Below the pieces are notes generated by a model, which ran no database searches, was not told where the DNA came from, and saw nothing but the letters and a program-made list of their open reading frames with translations. From the IMG/VR virus record IMGVR_UViG_3300022752_000023, positions 1-64,000 of that record: a stretch of DNA of 64,000 nucleotides. The stretch is one strand, 5' to 3'. Shown here one piece after another: positions 4,234 to 64,000 of this stretch (the first letter of the stretch is position 1; each line of letters opens with the position of its first letter). Source of the stretch: a virus. The position numbers were made by a program, and so were the translations under genes.

Positions 4234-6156
4234 TTATTGCGCTGGGGCGCCTTGGCCAAACTGCTGCGCCATGAGCATCGCGCCGCCCTGCGAACGAGCC
4301 TGTTGTCGAATGTCGTCGATAATACTTGTGACGAGCGCGTGCATTGTCGAATCGGATCTCTTCAGTTTGATAAGCTCAGAATCCTTTACAGATTCAGGCA
4401 TAGATAACAACTGATTCGCCATAAGCTGTGCTTGTTGCTGCAACTCTTCTGGTGTGCGCGGCACGTTCGGCGAGTTCTGCCGTTGCATAAGAAACTGATC
4501 GACCGGGCTCGGTGCTTGGCCGGGCATACCGCCGGCAGGTGCTTGAGCCGGCGCGCCGCCTCCTTGCGGCATACCCGTAGCGCCGGCACCCGTGTTGCCG
4601 ACACCTGACATCATGTCTGGCGCCTGACTCATGTCCTTCATTTGCTGCGCCTGCTGCATCTCCGCCTGCATGCGCTCTTGCTCTTCCGCGTAAATCTTTT
4701 CCTCTTCGAGCATTTGTTTGATCTCGTCGCGGTAATCCAAACCAACACTCGAAAGGCCAGTGCTCTTGCTGATCTGCTGCCCCTGCATGAGCTGCAGCTT
4801 GGCCATCTGCCGGTTAAGGTCGTCAGCGTGGGTGACGCGCATCAGCTTCGCGCTGACAGGTTCCCACGACATAACGCGCGAAATCGAAGACACCAACTCG
4901 TTCAAGAACAAATTCATATTGTGCGGCAAATGGCTCCAATTTGCTTCGAACAGACGTAGCGCAGCCGGCGCGGCTTGCAGCGTCAGCGTGCCGTTGAACA
5001 ACTCAACGGGCATGCCGATGCACTTCAGCAGCGTTTCTAAACCCTGATCGAGGAGGTCGCGGGGCGCGAGCTGCGACGCGTCTCCGCCAAGCGCCTGATA
5101 CTGCACAGGAAACGGAAGAATGTTCCAGCGCGCCGGGTCGCTGCGGCGCGCCCGAATCATCGCGTTAACGCGAGCAGTAAAGCTAGAAAGATTGATTGTA
5201 TGTACCGGGTCGGACGACTGCGCGTCGCCGCCGCGCGGCATTGGCGTGATCACACGAAACGGGATAACGTAATCAAGCGCGACTGCCTCGTTGTAGCGCT
5301 TGAGAATTTGGTAGTACCACGCTTCGCGGAAGTTTGCGAGCACGCGGGAGATACCCCAACCGCGGTTGCGCATGCCGGCAAGCGGATCTTCTTTAAGGTG
5401 AAAAATCACGCCCTTATCAAACATCAAATTCTGGCCATTTTTGATTGCCTGAATAACTTCCCAGCTTGCGCGCTCAAGATGGTGCAAGTGACCCTGTTTG
5501 ATCAGCGTGCGATAGTCTTCTGGAATTTTCCACACATATGAACATTCGCCGGTGTACGGGTCCCACAAGATATCAATTTCGTGTGGGCTCCAACGTTTGA
5601 CGGTAATGTGGCTTGTGTCACCACTGCGGCGGTCTACGTGTTTCCACGGTCCAACATGCTTACATTTCGGGCACGTTGCGTGAAACTGAAAATTCTGCCA
5701 CGAAAAAGCGCACTGATCAGAGTTCATTACCCGGTCGAGCGGCATCTCAAGTCCGCATTTCGGGCAAAACAAATACCTACGAAACGGCACAAGCAGACTA
5801 GTGAAAGAATTACCGTAGGTCATGTAATCCATGCCTACAGAGTGCAACACGTTTTTAATGCTTAACGTCTCAGACAAAAACGTCTGATACTTCTCTTTCT
5901 CTTCACGGCCTGTTTTGTTTTCGCCGACGTCTCTAATTTCGACGTCTGTAATAAAGTAAGACACGACGCGGTCAACGGCCTGCCTGTAGGGACCGTTCGC
6001 GTTCATGATGTACTCAGTCCAGCGCAGGGCCGTCTGGATGCTCTCAGGCATCGACAGACTGGCTACGTCGCAGAACGGGTCCGGGAAGCGCTCGTCGGCC
6101 TGTACGCCGCGACCGAGCGAGTTATACCCCATAGAAGCGGATGGTAAGAGCGTCAC
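4234..6156 (-). CDS. Probable portal protein with inserted Zn-ribbon and Q/P-rich tail
   Basis: 640 aa; DYMTYGNSF and IFHLK...RGWGIS portal-like motifs; two CPKC pairs; MQ/GP-rich C-terminus. Confidence 0.55.
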   Translation of the reverse strand: MTLLPSASMGYNSLGRGVQADERFPDPFCDVASLSMPESIQTALRWTEYIMNANGPYRQAVDRVVSYFITDVEIRDVGENKTGREEKEKYQTFLSETLSIKNVLHSVGMDYMTYGNSFTSLLVPFRRYLFCPKCGLEMPLDRVMNSDQCAFSWQNFQFHATCPKCKHVGPWKHVDRRSGDTSHITVKRWSPHEIDILWDPYTGECSYVWKIPEDYRTLIKQGHLHHLERASWEVIQAIKNGQNLMFDKGVIFHLKEDPLAGMRNRGWGISRVLANFREAWYYQILKRYNEAVALDYVIPFRVITPMPRGGDAQSSDPVHTINLSSFTARVNAMIRARRSDPARWNILPFPVQYQALGGDASQLAPRDLLDQGLETLLKCIGMPVELFNGTLTLQAAPAALRLFEANWSHLPHNMNLFLNELVSSISRVMSWEPVSAKLMRVTHADDLNRQMAKLQLMQGQQISKSTGLSSVGLDYRDEIKQMLEEEKIYAEEQERMQAEMQQAQQMKDMSQAPDMMSGVGNTGAGATGMPQGGGAPAQAPAGGMPGQAPSPVDQFLMQRQNSPNVPRTPEELQQQAQLMANQLLSMPESVKDSELIKLKRSDSTMHALVTSIIDDIRQQARSQGGAMLMAQQFGQGAPAQ

Positions 6157-38395: not shown

Positions 38396-38466
38396 TTCGG
38401 GGACTAGGATTCGAACCTAGAATAATCCGTCCAAAGCGGATTGTGATACCATTTCACCATCCCCGA
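38396..38466 (-). tRNA. tRNA-Gln (TTG)
   Basis: TCGGGGA/TCCCCGA acceptor, ATCCG-CTTTGGA-CGGAT anticodon arm, CTAGG-TTCGAAT-CCTAG T arm. Confidence 0.92.
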
Positions 38467-58579: not shown

Positions 58580-59581
58580 CTACATCGACATCAGGCGGCG
58601 AGAAGGTATTAGCTCGTTCATATTGACGGGTCGCGGCAAATGCGCCGCGGCGGCAGGTGTATACAAGTTTTGCCGCCGACGCTCAGACCGAGACACGTTG
58701 TACGCGTTAAATTGCGTGACGTTGTCAATGATTGCGCCGGCAAACAAAGCGTCGTCGTGTACGTCTTCACGCGTGTAGGTTTGCGTCGGGCCGTCATACG
58801 TAGGTCGAAAAATGATATGACCGCCTGCTACAACCGCGTGCCCGCGAAACGCCAGTAGCGCGTTGATTTGTTCGACGTTTGCGATGATGGCGTAATCGAC
58901 AACTTTCAGCCGCGAACGTTCGAATGTCGGGTCGTTTTGCTCTCGCGAGTAGATTGACACCTGCATCAGTTTGCTGCCTACGACCTGCGCTTTCCCGGCA
59001 ATAGTGACAAAGCCGCGAAGAACGGAGCTGCTGATTTGCGCCTCACCGCCGACGTACGCCTGCCCTTCCAGCGACGTTTGAATTGCAATAGCTTTTCCCG
59101 AAATACCGCAGTGACCGCGCAACGTGCAACTGATAACGCGGGCGTTGTCTCGGATAAAAGCGTTTTCATACGCTGTGGTCGAGCCCGAAACGATGCCGCC
59201 GTACACGCGCGCTTCGTTTGAGAATTGGCAGTCGTCCATCACGCGCGCGCGCCCGCTGATGCTCGCAAATTGGTTCAGTTTTACGTTTCCGCTGACGTGC
59301 GCGTATCCGCAGATCTGGGCCCGATCATGTACGCGTACGTTGCCCTCAACGCGGGCATTGTGATACACCTGCGCCAGTTTGTAAACAAAAACCGAATCGG
59401 CAACTTTCGCGGTATCTGCTACCCAGCCCTCGCCGTTAACGTGGCGATGCGCAAACACGCGGCCGTTACCGTCTTTGAAATCATGCTTTGACGCCCGTTT
59501 CTTCTTTGGTTTGACCGCGGCCATCACCTCTGCCGCCGCATCTAGTACGGCGACAGAGCTGTCTTTTTGTTCCTCCATCAC
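58580..59581 (-). CDS. Left-handed beta-helix (hexapeptide repeat) protein
   Basis: Repeats such as AQVYHN/ARVEGN/AQICGY/AHVSGN. Confidence 0.8.
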   Translation of the reverse strand: MMEEQKDSSVAVLDAAAEVMAAVKPKKKRASKHDFKDGNGRVFAHRHVNGEGWVADTAKVADSVFVYKLAQVYHNARVEGNVRVHDRAQICGYAHVSGNVKLNQFASISGRARVMDDCQFSNEARVYGGIVSGSTTAYENAFIRDNARVISCTLRGHCGISGKAIAIQTSLEGQAYVGGEAQISSSVLRGFVTIAGKAQVVGSKLMQVSIYSREQNDPTFERSRLKVVDYAIIANVEQINALLAFRGHAVVAGGHIIFRPTYDGPTQTYTREDVHDDALFAGAIIDNVTQFNAYNVSRSERRRQNLYTPAAAAHLPRPVNMNELIPSRRLMSM

Positions 59582-60525
59582 GACTCCATCGGAAGGACAC
59601 GCCGTCTTGGCGCGTTTGTGATCATGCTGTCTAGCGCCGTCTTTACCTCACCCATTTGCTGCGTCAGGCTTTGCCGCAGGTTTGTGTTCTTACGAAGATC
59701 CGCGACATCCACGCCAGACACGATGTTGGTCGCCTGCTCAATGAGCCTGTCGAGCTGTGCGTTAGACCGCACGTTCATACGCCGAAAGTTTTCAGAGAAC
59801 TCTTTGAAATTCTCGATTGCCGACGCCTTGAACGTCTTTTTCGTGCCATCGGGCTCGTCGGTCAGCCGCTCGATGAGGTGGGCGATCATGTCCTGCAGCT
59901 GCTCAGCAAACGCGTTTTCGGCCATAACGACCGCCGTTTCGAATCTGTGCTGTACGCGCTGCTGTTCTTGCTGATAAAGCTCAGGATTGAACGTCATCAG
60001 ATAATTCGGCGGCTCGACGGGCGGATACTCCCATCGGATATCAAATACGCCCTCCAGCGACGTCGGATAGTCCGCTGGGTTGTATAAGTCGCCAAGCTTT
60101 TCGCGGGCAGCTGTTTTGAGTGTTTCGTACTCCAGCTGTAAGTTTGCCGCAGCCGCGACTAGCTGCTCCTTGTATTCGCGCATCTTGTCTTCAAACGCGC
60201 CAATGTCCGATTGTTTAATCAGTCGGACACCGTCCTGCGGATAGGGCAGTGTCATTGAGCGCCAGTAAGCTGACGCTTGGCTCTTGAGCGTTGTTAACAC
60301 GCGATATGTCGTGTTCTTTGTATCAATCAGCCGTTTCGACGCGGTGACTAGATCAGTCGCGGCGTGAAACGTGTCAGCAGCTTGTTTGGTCTGCGCATCT
60401 GAAAGCTTGCGCTGCGTACCGAGCCACGAGAACGACAGCTTGACCGCGCCCATCGTCTGGCGCAGTTCGTCAGCCGTTCGCTCTACTGCTGCGGTTTCTG
60501 CTGGCGTTGTGTCTGTTGTAGACAT
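59578..60525 (-). CDS. DUF3150-like helical protein of the AAA module
   Basis: ASKRLID...TLPYP..GVRL...LGDLYNPADYP. Confidence 0.5.
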   Translation of the reverse strand: MSTTDTTPAETAAVERTADELRQTMGAVKLSFSWLGTQRKLSDAQTKQAADTFHAATDLVTASKRLIDTKNTTYRVLTTLKSQASAYWRSMTLPYPQDGVRLIKQSDIGAFEDKMREYKEQLVAAAANLQLEYETLKTAAREKLGDLYNPADYPTSLEGVFDIRWEYPPVEPPNYLMTFNPELYQQEQQRVQHRFETAVVMAENAFAEQLQDMIAHLIERLTDEPDGTKKTFKASAIENFKEFSENFRRMNVRSNAQLDRLIEQATNIVSGVDVADLRKNTNLRQSLTQQMGEVKTALDSMITNAPRRRVLPMES

Positions 60526-61116
60526 TCAGTCTTCCTCTTCGTCGGCTGTTTCTGCTTCATTGTTCACCCACTCGTCGATTCCGAACGCATTCACAAGCCC
60601 TTTTGGGAGCTTGGTTAACTCGTCTATATTGCGTGGAATACTAAACTCCTGAATCGCCCCATTTTGATATACGCCACAAAACCCTACGCCCGGCTCAAAG
60701 CAGTAGGCTGTGATATCAAAACCCTCGGCGGCGTGTAGGTGGTCAAAGAATTGAATTGGCGGCGACCATGCAGAATCAAACGTCAATGTGAGCTGTTTGG
60801 CTTTTGCGGATAGCCGCTTTGGCGTCTGATCCGTCTCGCGGCCGACATCCCACTTTGTTCCCCAGTGACCTATCTGCCAGTCATACCAATTCTTCGCCCC
60901 ATACAACTCCATGTTTTGCTGCTCCTGCGCTTCTAAAGCTAGTTGCGCCGTAGACCCGGATGGGCCGGCGCAACCGGCGATAGTCGCTTTCAGTTCAGCC
61001 GGGCACGGTAAAAACGTACTCATAAGACAACCACTGTTCCATGCGCGCACCAACTTGTGCAACTGCTCCGGGTCGTTGTGTTTAAACGTAACTTTGTTGG
61101 CGCACCAGTTAGGCAT
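60526..61116 (-). CDS. DUF1281/YubB ferredoxin-like protein
   Basis: MPNWCAN...WYDW...WGTKWD...FDSAWSPP...EPGVGFCG. Confidence 0.8.
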   Translation of the reverse strand: MPNWCANKVTFKHNDPEQLHKLVRAWNSGCLMSTFLPCPAELKATIAGCAGPSGSTAQLALEAQEQQNMELYGAKNWYDWQIGHWGTKWDVGRETDQTPKRLSAKAKQLTLTFDSAWSPPIQFFDHLHAAEGFDITAYCFEPGVGFCGVYQNGAIQEFSIPRNIDELTKLPKGLVNAFGIDEWVNNEAETADEEED

Positions 61117-61179
61117 GATTTGGCGTGCAATCCGCAGCTGCGGGGCGTTGCCGCCCCGCAGCCGCAGTCTTGCTAGCAC

Positions 61180-61716
61180 TTAGCCCTTTGCGGGTGCCGC
61201 GACGCGACGCGGACGTGACGACGTGACAGCCGGCTTACCGACACGCGTGTAAATACCGCGGTTGTCAGCCGACAGGCAGCGACCCTCAGCCCAGTTCCGC
61301 AGCCGCTCGATCTGCTCAGCCGACGTCACCGAAATCGGCACGACGTTCTGGGCAGCTTCAACGAGCGGAATGTCAAGCAGCGCTGCGAGCCTGCAGCACG
61401 ACTTGATCTCGGCGCCGGTCCAGTTGGTGTCGTCCGGCTTATCCTGTGCGGCGTCGACACCGAAATGCTTCAGGTAGATGTCCCAGATTGCCGCGCGCTG
61501 TTCGGCGCCCGGCAGATCTACAAAGAAAATACCGTCGAAACGCTCGGCGCGAGCAAACGGCGCCGGCAGCTGGCTGGCGTCGTTGCAGGTGCCGATAAAG
61601 AACACGTCCGACGTGTGGTCATTCAGCCACGTCAGGAGCGTACCAAACAGGCGCGCAGAAACGCCGCTGTCGGTCTGCCCGGATGAGCCTACGCCGGCGA
61701 GACCCTTTTCGATTTC
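61180..61716 (-). CDS. Ycf46-like AAA+ ATPase, exon 2
   Basis: Begins EIEKGLAG; LLTWLND, GTCND, RAERFDGIFFVDLP, TGAEI. Confidence 0.9.
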   Translation of the reverse strand, partial: EIEKGLAGVGSSGQTDSGVSARLFGTLLTWLNDHTSDVFFIGTCNDASQLPAPFARAERFDGIFFVDLPGAEQRAAIWDIYLKHFGVDAAQDKPDDTNWTGAEIKSCCRLAALLDIPLVEAAQNVVPISVTSAEQIERLRNWAEGRCLSADNRGIYTRVGKPAVTSSRPRRVAAPAKG

Positions 61717-62525
61717 CGTTGATGTTACGAATTAGCCGTTTCCGCTAATTCTCCTGTATTTTCATACAGGACCAGACTATGTCATCTTGTAGCGTCGCAC
61801 ATTGCATCGGTTGCACAAACCTTTCGATGCGTGCGGCGAAGTGGTTAGTCCGCAGGAAATGCATGCTTCGTATTGCGTGCTCCAACGGCCATTTTTTAAT
61901 AGTTTTGGTGTGGCGTATTTTGCTGTGCGTGCTGCCTGCAGTTCTGTTTTGTGTTCTAACAAATGACAGCGTCTACAGACAGTTTCAAGATTGTCTAAAG
62001 CGTTGTTAGGGTTTTTATTCCCTCGCCCTAGACGATCTTTGTGGTGCACGACAAGTTTTTTCTTTTTGCCGCAACGAGAACATTGTTGTTCGTCGCGTTT
62101 AATTACGGCTGTTCTTTCGCCGTTAAAATGTCGTTGTTCGCGGTAATTTTTTCGATACTGCAAACAATCGGCGTGGTTGTCGTAATACCATTGTTTTTTG
62201 GTGTTGGCTATGCGTTGACGATTTTTGTCGTCGTTGCGATAGCATTCCAAATAACAGATTTTGCACAGTCCTTTTGCCATATGCAGCCGTTCGGTCAGGC
62301 CGCACGATTGGCAACAGGAATATTTTTTTGACCACATCTCAAAACTCTACTACAAGGCCCCCATTTCGAACCCACTTGGGTCCTACGATCTTTCGATCTA
62401 GTCGTTGAACCTTCCAAGTATATTGCTACTTGGCTTGGCTGCAAGTTGCCCGGCTTACGCTGAGGGGTTTCTTGCAATTAAAGGGCTTTTCACTGATTTG
62501 TCGCCAAATCAGGGGACTGAACTCA
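61717..62525 (-). mobile_element. Group I intron (IA2-like, 809 nt) with HNH ORF
   Basis: P1 GGAU|...GUCC with U-G pair; P AATTGCAAGAAA; Q AACTTGCAGC; R GTTCAACGACTA; S AAGATGACATAGTC; terminal G; splicing restores LFVD-EIEK in frame. Confidence 0.92.
61777..62337 (-). CDS. Intron-encoded HNH homing endonuclease
   Basis: CSRCG..LVVHHKD...NNALDNLETVCRRCHLLEH. Confidence 0.9.
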   Translation of the reverse strand: MWSKKYSCCQSCGLTERLHMAKGLCKICYLECYRNDDKNRQRIANTKKQWYYDNHADCLQYRKNYREQRHFNGERTAVIKRDEQQCSRCGKKKKLVVHHKDRLGRGNKNPNNALDNLETVCRRCHLLEHKTELQAARTAKYATPKLLKNGRWSTQYEACISCGLTTSPHASKGLCNRCNVRRYKMT

Positions 62526-63473
62526 ATCCACAAACAACACGCACGGAGCCATTGCGTCAACCTGCTTGAGCGCGCGACGCATGTTACCCTCGGACTCGCC
62601 CACGAACTTGCCCATGAGCGAACCGAAATCCAGCATTACGGTCGGACGACCGACTTCGTTGCCAAGTGCTTTGGCAAACTGCGACTTGCCGCAGCCCGGA
62701 GGCGACAGCAAAAGAACGCCCTTGGGGCGCTTGTCTACGTTGGTTTCGCCTTGCCGCCGCATGGCGCGCAGGCAGAAACTCTTAAGGTTTTCGAGGCCGC
62801 CAAGATTCTCAAAGTTGGCGTCGCCACGATAGAGCGTCATCGTACCGCTCTTTTCAAGCGTCTGCGCCTTGATACCCCAGATCGTATCGGGCGACAGCTT
62901 GTTGTTGCGCACCAGCGACAGCGCGAACGCGTTCTCGGCCTCCTGCCGAGTCAGGCCGCGCGAGGCGTCAACCACCGCCGCGACTTCCTGCTCGGTCGGC
63001 TTGGCGAACGGGGAGCCGTCAGGGAACAGCTCGGTGCACACGGTCTTGAGCTGTTCCAGATCCGGCAGCTCGTGATGCACCACGGTAAACAACTTCTCTA
63101 CCTCGGGCTGCAGCTGCAGCACCGGCGCGACGATAATGATATGTTTACCCTCGCCCTTACCCTGCACGACGCGGTTTGCAAGTGCCTGCAGCACCTCCGG
63201 GTTGCCGAGAAACCGGTGAAAGTTCTTCAGCACAATAAGCATGGGCTGCTTGGGCTGCGGCTGATCAAGAAACCGCAACGCCTGTAGCGGGCCGGGAGCC
63301 TGCGCGTTCCCCGAATAAAGCTGGCGGTCGATGTCCCAGACATCGAATCCCCATTCCTTCTCTTCCGTTACACGACGAACCGACGCAATCGCGTCGTCGC
63401 ACTCCTGTGATTCAACCCAGATGCCGGAGAAGCCGGCGCATACCAGCTCCTTGATTTCTTTTTCGAGCGACAC
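62526..63473 (-). CDS. Ycf46-like AAA+ ATPase, exon 1 (spliced product about 494 aa)
   Basis: LGGLENLK, PKGVLLLSPPGCGKS, FVGESE, PCVLFVD. Confidence 0.92.
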
Positions 63474-63514: not shown

Positions 63515-63706
63515 TCAGTTACTTTCAGCGATTTGCTCGTCGTTGCTGGCGGTATAGAACTCGCCAGTCAGTTGCTCATCCACCTTTGCGCCTAGCGCCT
63601 GTTCCAGCGCCCGCGTGGCATCCTGACACGAACTGCCGGTGAAACCGCTCGTCTCGATCTTGGTGCCGCCCTTCGGGTCGACAACGATATGAATGGTCTT
63701 CGACAT
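63515..63706 (-). CDS. DUF2997 family protein
   Basis: I.VDPKG...IETSGFTGSSC.DAT..LEQALG. Confidence 0.8.
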   Translation of the reverse strand: MSKTIHIVVDPKGGTKIETSGFTGSSCQDATRALEQALGAKVDEQLTGEFYTASNDEQIAESN

Positions 63707-63708
63707 GT

Positions 63709-64000
63709 TTAGAAACCTCCCGTCAGGCTGAGTTTGACCGAACCGTCCGGCAGCATTTCCTCGAACACCGAGTAGCCGCCCTTCTGCGCTTCGTAGATCG
63801 CCTTCTCGACCGCGTACGCCTGCAGGAACCTGTCCAGCTCTTCCTGCTTGCCCCACGCGCCGTTGTAGTTGTCATAGTTCGCGGCGCCGGTTTCCGTATT
63901 GAACACAGCCGGGAACTGCCAGCCGGGAAGCTTTACAGCGAGACCGTCCGCCGACTGCCCGGCGAAAAGAACGTGATGACCGGCCTTCGGCGTCTCAAGG
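63709..64000 (-). CDS. DUF1257 (Ycf35-like) protein, 5' end outside the window
   Basis: LPGWQFPAVF...YDNYNGAWG...QAYAVEK...GYSV.E..LPDGSVKL. Confidence 0.8.
   Translation of the reverse strand, partial: LETPKAGHHVLFAGQSADGLAVKLPGWQFPAVFNTETGAANYDNYNGAWGKQEELDRFLQAYAVEKAIYEAQKGGYSVFEEMLPDGSVKLSLTGGF

Follow-up and report, generated by a model that had tools for sequence, protein, structure and literature searches.

A very likely mobile self-splicing group I intron with an HNH gene in the Walker B codons of an AAA+ ATPase gene from an uncultured jumbo phage

The first 64,000 nucleotides (nt) of the IMG/VR record IMGVR_UViG_3300022752_000023 (hereafter the window; the record is 144 kb long, with an estimated completeness of 71%) contain a gene for an AAA+ ATPase whose Walker B codons are separated by an insertion of 809 nt. 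The contigs of the relatives are about 200-205 kb long; the window therefore belongs to an uncultured phage of jumbo size. We believe with high confidence that the insertion is a mobile self-splicing group I intron of IA2-like type that encodes an HNH enzyme. The group I assignment is supported by a covariance-model match, an RNA structure, intron-free alleles of the predicted length and further copies at the same site. We infer the splicing and the endonuclease activity from sequence comparison, and on this basis the intron is probably active and mobile. An earlier interpretation made from the letters of the window (the sequence-only reading) had proposed a group I intron with P7.1, P7.2 and an open reading frame (ORF) in P8, which splits the Walker B motif of an AAA+ ATPase; the match to Rfam RF00028, the structure, and both the intron-free and the intron-bearing alleles speak for it. 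The locus consists of the following parts.

62526-63473, minus strand: exon 1 of the AAA+ ATPase gene, 316 amino acids (aa), with the N-terminal domain, Walker A and the first part of Walker B as far as its Asp, ending CVLFVD (ORF list, Pfam, PHROG).
61717-62525, minus strand: predicted group I intron, 809 nt, IA2-like (Rfam RF00028, a hand-built structure and a free minimum-free-energy (MFE) fold).
61777-62337, minus strand: predicted HNH homing endonuclease gene, 186 aa (Pfam HNH PF01844, 28.8 bits with a cut-off of 21.4; PHROG HNH families).
61183-61716, stop codon at 61180-61182, minus strand: exon 2, 178 aa, starting EIEKGLAG, with the rest of the AAA module and a C-terminal tail (translation, Pfam, PHROG).

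Exon 1 ends with the codons TTT GTG GAT and exon 2 begins with GAA ATC GAA AAG. The intron starts with U (62525) after the final U of the exon (62526), and its 3' end reads AACG, with the G at 61717. Shifting the boundaries by one base in either direction loses GAT GAA, so they are unique; the insertion separates the Walker B codons for Asp and Glu (phase 0), and the position that the sequence-only reading gave it, 61717-62525 between D and E, is exact to the base. When the exons are joined by a script, LFVD-EIEK is restored in a 494-aa AAA+ ATPase, and this product aligns without gaps over CVLFVD-EIEKGL to many homologues of 494 aa (P0002, 97% identity; P0003, 94%). Taken separately, exon 1 shares 97% identity with residues 1-316 of P0002, which has no intron, and exon 2 shares 96% with residues 317-494. 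Domain profiles are divided at the same place: exon 1 matches positions 1-64 of Pfam AAA PF00004 and 152-371 of phrog_8638, while exon 2 matches positions 72-130 and 372-539, respectively. Since these matches abut, the two pieces are the halves of one AAA+ module.

The intron opens with an in-frame TGA (62523-62525, minus strand), as do all of its copies. Five homologues of 316-320 aa from the same protein search (P0010, P0026, P0028, P0036 and P0050) end at the same LFVD; therefore, gene callers truncate intron-bearing alleles elsewhere too. An intein was also considered and rejected, as an in-frame stop follows the Asp directly and intein motifs are lacking.

The host gene was surveyed in 37 IMG/VR loci, of which one ends before the site and 36 are readable at the junction. 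In 31 of the 37, exon 2 follows exon 1 directly, with a gap of 0 at the same codon boundary; a search for intron-less alleles, which the sequence-only reading had proposed as a check, thus found them in abundance. The intron is present in 5 of the 36 readable loci; these five represent four other phage lineages. It occupies the same codon boundary in L024 (809 nt), in L017 and the identical pair L025 and L036 (814 nt each), and in L026 (cut).

At the RNA level, the region 61753-62535 (minus strand) matches RF00028 over the full model, 1-253, with 67 bits against a gathering score of 50 (E-value 8e-15), so the covariance-model check suggested earlier came out in favor of the intron. When the whole 144-kb record is searched, the E-value is 4.3e-18 and this is the sole group I match in the record. 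The long insertion relative to the model falls in the P8 loop. Helices (P) and a joining segment (J) were assigned by hand and then compared between the four distinct copies of the ATPase intron after alignment.

62514-62529, minus strand: P1, in which exon GGAU and intron UG pair with the internal guide CAGUCC; the wobble U 62526•G 62517 lies at the 5' splice site (sequence; invariant in the four copies; free fold).
62493-62512, minus strand: P2 hairpin, 7 base pairs (hand structure; free fold).
62481-62486, minus strand: P3, 5' strand (hand structure).
62409-62476, minus strand: P4-P5-P6 domain, with a GUAA tetraloop capping P5 (compensatory C-G to U-A in P5).
62399-62403, minus strand: P7, 5' strand GACUA (hand structure; pseudoknot partner UAGUC).
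62387-62398, minus strand: P7.1, GATCGAAAGATC, i.e., GAUC-GAAA-GAUC with a GAAA loop (hand structure; free fold).
62368-62383, minus strand: P7.2 (compensatory A-U to G-C).
62357-62362, minus strand: P3, 3' strand (hand structure).
62350-62356, minus strand: P8, 5' strand CUUGUAG (hand structure; free fold).
61786-61792, minus strand: P8, 3' strand CUACAAG (hand structure).
Within 61775-61792, minus strand: J8/7 and the P7 3' strand UAGUC, the latter at 61775-61779 (hand structure).
61753-61770, minus strand: P9 with a GAAA loop (compensatory U-A to C-G).
61729-61751, minus strand: P9.1 with a GAAA loop, which is GUAA in L017 and L025 (hand structure; free fold).

The core, P7.1, P7.2, P8 and the P9 hairpins, all named in the sequence-only reading, are present. 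After P9.1 follows a tail of 12 nt, whose final base, G 61717, is the terminal omega G and is invariant in all copies. The structure comprises 77 pairs, and over the four diverged copies all 308 of 308 cells are standard pairs; compensatory double changes occur in three pairs (in P5, P7.2 and P9). When the pairing partners are slid by 1-3 columns as a control, 30-46% of the cells are paired. When a tetraloop is substituted for the ORF, the unconstrained MFE fold reproduces all helices but the P7 pseudoknot, at -98.6 kcal/mol and a z-score of -5.5 relative to shuffled sequences. The ribozyme parts are 91-99% identical between the copies (244-264 of 268 positions), versus 75-82% for the exons; the ribozyme is under purifying selection. 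Helices P7.1 and P7.2 that lie between P7 and the P3 3' strand are the mark of subgroup IA2 in the scheme of Michel and Westhof (1990). More than half of the viral group I introns are reported to belong to IA2 (PMC11835236).

The ORF starts 12 nt past the P8 5' strand; the first three bases of the P7 3' strand form its UAG stop codon. The sequence-only reading had it enclosed by P8; the start does lie in the P8 loop, but the frame runs on through the P8 3' strand and J8/7 into the P7 3' strand, where it stops. The protein matches 13 PHROG HNH families, and its translation contains VVHHKD, NNALDNL, CRRCH and EH in this order (the catalytic His, Asn and His, and CxxC pairs), with CxxC...KGLCxxC motifs bordering the HNH core on each side. 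The frame is intact, with 186 aa, in all four intron copies, and the ratio of its nonsynonymous to synonymous divergence (dN/dS) is 0.10-0.28. Its relatives in the protein database include seven at 66-93% identity (one of them on contigs up to 204 kb; the 93%-identical one is P0122) and ten more at 38-49%. A tblastn search against 50,697 phage records returned nothing close, only three weak matches (Gordonia phage Petra, faecal phage).

The exon sequence around the site is informative with respect to mobility.

62526-62534, minus strand: upstream flank TTTGTGGAT, synonymous codons common to all intron-bearing alleles, which supply U at -1 and G at -4 (allele comparison).
61597-61716, minus strand: downstream co-conversion tract, i.e., the first ~120 nt of exon 2, which resemble the intron-bearing L024 (informative sites).

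All intron-bearing alleles have TTTGTGGAT before and GAAATYGAAAAG after the intron. In 30 of the 31 intron-free alleles the site reads GTCGAC followed by GAGATCGA(G/A)AA(G/A), nearly always GAGATCGAGAAG, and encodes the same amino acids; in particular, the L002-type intron-free site is TTCGTCGAC followed by GAGATCGAGAAG. Intron-free alleles thus carry C at -1 and -4, and P1 needs exactly U at -1 and G at -4. Since the differences in the flanks match the needs of P1, the flanks either travel with the intron or are selected for splicing, or both.

When a host-gene tree is built with the junction region left out, the presence of the intron requires four gains or losses, and the window is nested in a supported clade (96 and 100) whose other members all lack the intron. 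We compared the window at the sites that separate its nearest relatives (L002, L003 and L009) from L024. Between -12 and +115 it is L024-like at 11 of 16 such sites and clade-like at 5; outside the junction tract it is clade-like at 180 of 207 and L024-like at 27 (Fisher p 2e-6, for tract limits that were set after the data had been seen). Homing from an L024-like donor is expected to leave such a mosaic tract, which here spans about -6 to +120 nt, as its co-conversion footprint. The introns of the window and L024 are only 87% identical, and the actual donor is therefore unsampled. The intron-free allele L027 (IMGVR_UViG_3300027777_001718, 4946-5005) keeps an intron-type flank, CTTTTTGTGGAT followed by GAAATTGAG, and is with full support the sister of the intron-bearing L025 and L036. 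The simplest reading is that L027 is probably a case of precise intron loss; the alternative is a natural empty homing site.

On the known chemistry of group I introns, we presume the following course of events. In the folded pre-mRNA, exon GGAU would pair with the guide to form P1, placing U•G at the cleavage site; free guanosine would attack after U 62526, the terminal G 61717 would then take the G-site in P7, and the exons would be ligated, which would restore GAU-GAA (LFVD-EIEK) and the 494-aa ATPase. Unspliced RNA would yield, owing to the initial UGA, only a 316-aa product ending exactly at the Walker B Asp. In a mixed infection, the HNH protein would nick or cut intron-free alleles near the conserved site encoding Walker B, and repair from the intron-bearing genome would copy in the intron together with short exon flanks.

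Several points weigh against this account. A search for RNA runs returned none that contains this phage, and two wastewater "RNA-Seq" runs are probably DNA and contain relatives alone. One wastewater contig of 316 nt does join the exons with exactly 809 nt missing (a skip of 882, with 73 letters in between); since it is only about 92% identical to the window, we interpret it as an intron-free allele rather than spliced RNA. The covariation is based on only four sequences, and the majority of the pairs are invariant. The label IA2-like relies on the presence of P7.1 and P7.2 and on the scheme mentioned above, not on a subgroup-specific model. The synonymous divergence (dS) between HNH copies amounts to 0.3-1.3 and roughly equals that between the host genes, from which we conclude that the element is old within this group of phages; recent mobility is indicated only by the tree position of the window and its mosaic flanks. 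A recent sweep of a single intron copy through all lineages was rejected, since the HNH dS is not clearly below that of the host genes.

Three further explanations deserve discussion. An active intron could in addition have been put to use, which would add to the selfish homing intron proposed here: the HNH enzyme would serve as a weapon against co-infecting relatives, or GTP-dependent splicing would gate the ATPase. It is in favor of this proposal that the HNH gene has remained intact under purifying selection over a long divergence, and that many close intron-free relatives co-occur as competitors. There is also a precedent in gp210 of phage PhiPA3, an enzyme shown to act as a weapon against co-infecting relatives (10.1101/2023.09.30.560319), and the idea of an intron as a "molecular switch" has been discussed (PMC11878797). 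However, nothing separates a benefit from plain selfish persistence, and the intron is rare (again, 5 of 36 readable loci), so we regard such use as unlikely. Slightly more doubtful still is the specific version in which the intron-HNH pair is kept for its benefit, with HNH cutting leading to marker exclusion or interference, and splicing together with the UGA tuning or timing a DUF1257-DUF2997-associated AAA+ machine.

The intron could also be dead, the ATPase being then a pseudogene or only a 316-aa N-terminal fragment. The RNA search, which returned no run containing this phage, agrees with that, as does the in-frame UGA at the start of the intron, from which unspliced RNA would give a truncated protein. 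On the other hand, all core helices are intact in the four copies, compensatory changes included, the exon flanks retain the exact bases that P1 needs, and both exons, exon 2 among them, are under purifying selection in all intron-bearing alleles; we consider a dead intron very improbable. The remaining proposal, in which a free-standing HNH gene would split the ATPase into two separately translated and reassembling halves, as in some phage genes split by homing endonucleases, we can hardly credit in spite of the public gene calls that give separate 316-aa proteins (P0010, P0026 and P0028), because the full-length Rfam group I match and the structure contradict it, exon 2 begins at Glu and has at the junction neither a start codon nor a ribosome-binding site (the ORF scan lists a GTG at 61605, 37 codons further downstream, as the first start in frame), and two chains broken inside the Walker B dipeptide could not easily form one active site.

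We thus retain the mobile self-splicing intron and turn to its host gene. The ATPase has the features of the classic AAA+ clade: a single AAA module, Walker A, Walker B of the form hhhhDE, and the second region of homology. The closest solved structures to the module are the D2 domains of Cdc48/p97 (E-value 4e-44). An NCBIfam search gave only partial matches to CDC48, PAN and FtsH, all far below the family cut-offs, and no curated family there claims the protein. The name "Ycf46-type" used in the sequence-only reading is plausible, considering the 250-aa N-domain with one classic AAA module, the source names "SpoVK/Ycf46/Vps4 family", and the neighboring DUF2997 and DUF1257/Ycf35-like genes. 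Its suggestion that the host gene is conserved and under selection is borne out by the dN/dS of the exons, 0.12-0.22, with purifying selection on both exons in all intron-bearing alleles. The genes upstream of the ATPase gene are as follows.

63515-63706, minus strand: DUF2997 gene of 63 aa, next to the ATPase gene on its upstream side (Pfam PF11211, 57.9 bits).
63709-64000, minus strand: DUF1257-like gene, 121 aa, extending past the end of the window to 64074 (Pfam PF06868, below the cut-off with 18.3 bits for the truncated piece).

The full DUF1257-like ORF was read in L084 (DUF1257-DUF2997 region L084:10-375, minus strand). The DUF1257-like, DUF2997 and AAA+ ATPase genes are co-oriented as one module. 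Downstream of the ATPase gene lie a gene for a DUF1281_C-like protein (60526-61179) and then one for a 315-aa protein without a family (59578-60525). Literature searches on DUF2997 and DUF1257 gave no description of this case. Elsewhere in the window, two tRNA genes are located in a stretch of lower GC content, at 37675-37750 and 38396-38466 (both minus strand; Rfam, 55 and 65 bits).

The sequence-only reading had considered an AAA gene to be an unusual host for a phage intron. Our literature searches (group I intron, AAA+ or Walker B, phages) turned up no report of introns in genes of this family; nevertheless, the statement is overstated in view of N4-like coliphages and of the huge gut phages, which are reported to have about 18 group I introns per genome, in many essential genes (PMC12880540). 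The protein gp24 of phage G7C, 350 aa with PF00004, has the Walker B LLFLDE. In Escherichia phage U1G (NC_070872.1, L086:301-2235, PP766_gp26-gp28), gp24 is split in this motif, between LLFL and DE: the first piece ends with LLFLN and a stop, and the protein resumes 882 nt later, after a gap that holds an HNH gene annotated as "Phage intron". Similar splits exist in PW8 and NAN33P5, and most close relatives lack the insertion. The U1G insert gives nothing at the Rfam gathering threshold and 23.7 bits (E-value 0.003) in a relaxed search; it is either a divergent group I intron or is poorly modelled owing to the position of its ORF. The N4-like insertions resemble the ATPase intron in placing an HNH gene in the Walker B of an AAA ATPase. 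They differ in that gp24 is a 350-aa lineage from another phage family with an unrelated insert, whereas our host gene encodes a 494-aa Cdc48-D2-like ATPase. Together with the intron-rich huge phages, the gp24 splits lead us to conclude that an intron at a conserved catalytic motif of an ATPase fits a known habit.

A 25-nt block from R and P7.1, GGTTCAACGACTAGATCGAAAGATC, occurs exactly in 44 IMG/VR contigs, five of which are the ATPase introns. The other contigs align to the ATPase intron over the core only, and those introns that were checked lack an ORF, measure 210-280 nt and score 79-94 bits as group I introns. They are located either in an SU10-type major capsid gene (PF17236, E-value 1e-83), with one or two sites close to its 5' end, or in other genes. 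Examples in the capsid gene are L050:1795-2584 (plus strand), L059:4557-4780 (minus strand) and L079:3512-3735 (minus strand), which score 79-86 bits and come from another uncultured phage group. About 28 of the 44 contigs share the same 329-aa upstream ORF. Introns with this core in L040, L054, L057, L063, L069 and L076 come after an open frame that ends in QRQLIKKILLNS, some 100 nt upstream of the motif.

In a blastn search of the whole region against the 50,697 phage records, the sole match was one of 66 nt, to the intron 3' end: the segment from the P7 3' strand (P7') to P9.1 is an 84% match to the 3' ends of introns in Vibrio phages 1.187.O and 1.193.O. In the latter (MG592562.1; L039:1885-3248, minus strand), the separately annotated "terminase-like" pieces of the terminase gene are divided by three group I introns without an ORF (75-84 bits), one of which gives the 84% match. 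The capsid and terminase introns resemble the ATPase intron in ribozyme lineage, the terminase introns of 1.193.O sharing the P7'-P9.1 3' end (the 25-mer is not demonstrated in them); unlike the ATPase intron, they have no endonuclease gene and occupy other sites and host genes.

The element is an ordinary kind of selfish phage element and does not change what is known of group I introns. The gene should be annotated as one 494-aa ATPase with an intron, while the public calls now give fragments of 316-320 aa, at least five of them in the protein database. The homing cycle becomes visible in metagenomic contigs of uncultured phages of about 200 kb, i.e., the occupied site, the empty sites, the co-conversion footprint, and an allele that probably lost the intron precisely. 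Finally, the stretch encoding Walker B in the DUF1257-DUF2997-AAA+ module is marked as strongly constrained.

Among the well-studied systems, the td, nrdB and nrdD (sunY) introns of phage T4 belong to subgroup IA2, with the GIY-YIG enzymes I-TevI and I-TevII and with ORFs in P6 or P9.1. They share with the ATPase intron a protein gene of a phage as host, the P7.1/P7.2 core, an endonuclease ORF in a peripheral helix, a conserved catalytic site as the target, and homing with co-conversion of the flanks. The ATPase intron differs from them in its HNH enzyme, which starts in the P8 loop, and in its AAA+ host gene rather than one of nucleotide metabolism; blastn against the phage records gave no match to it beyond short core blocks. 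The HNH enzymes I-HmuI and I-HmuII of the Bacillus phages SPO1 and SP82 are encoded by IA2 introns in DNA polymerase genes. The same holds for I-PfoP3I of cyanophage Pf-WMP3, an HNH endonuclease of an IA2 intron within the gene for DNA polymerase (PMC3428280). Although the host gene is different and the HNH proteins are not detectably close by tblastn, the introns of Pf-WMP3, SPO1 and SP82 are similar to the ATPase intron, as each combines an IA2-type ribozyme with an HNH (nicking) enzyme in an essential gene.

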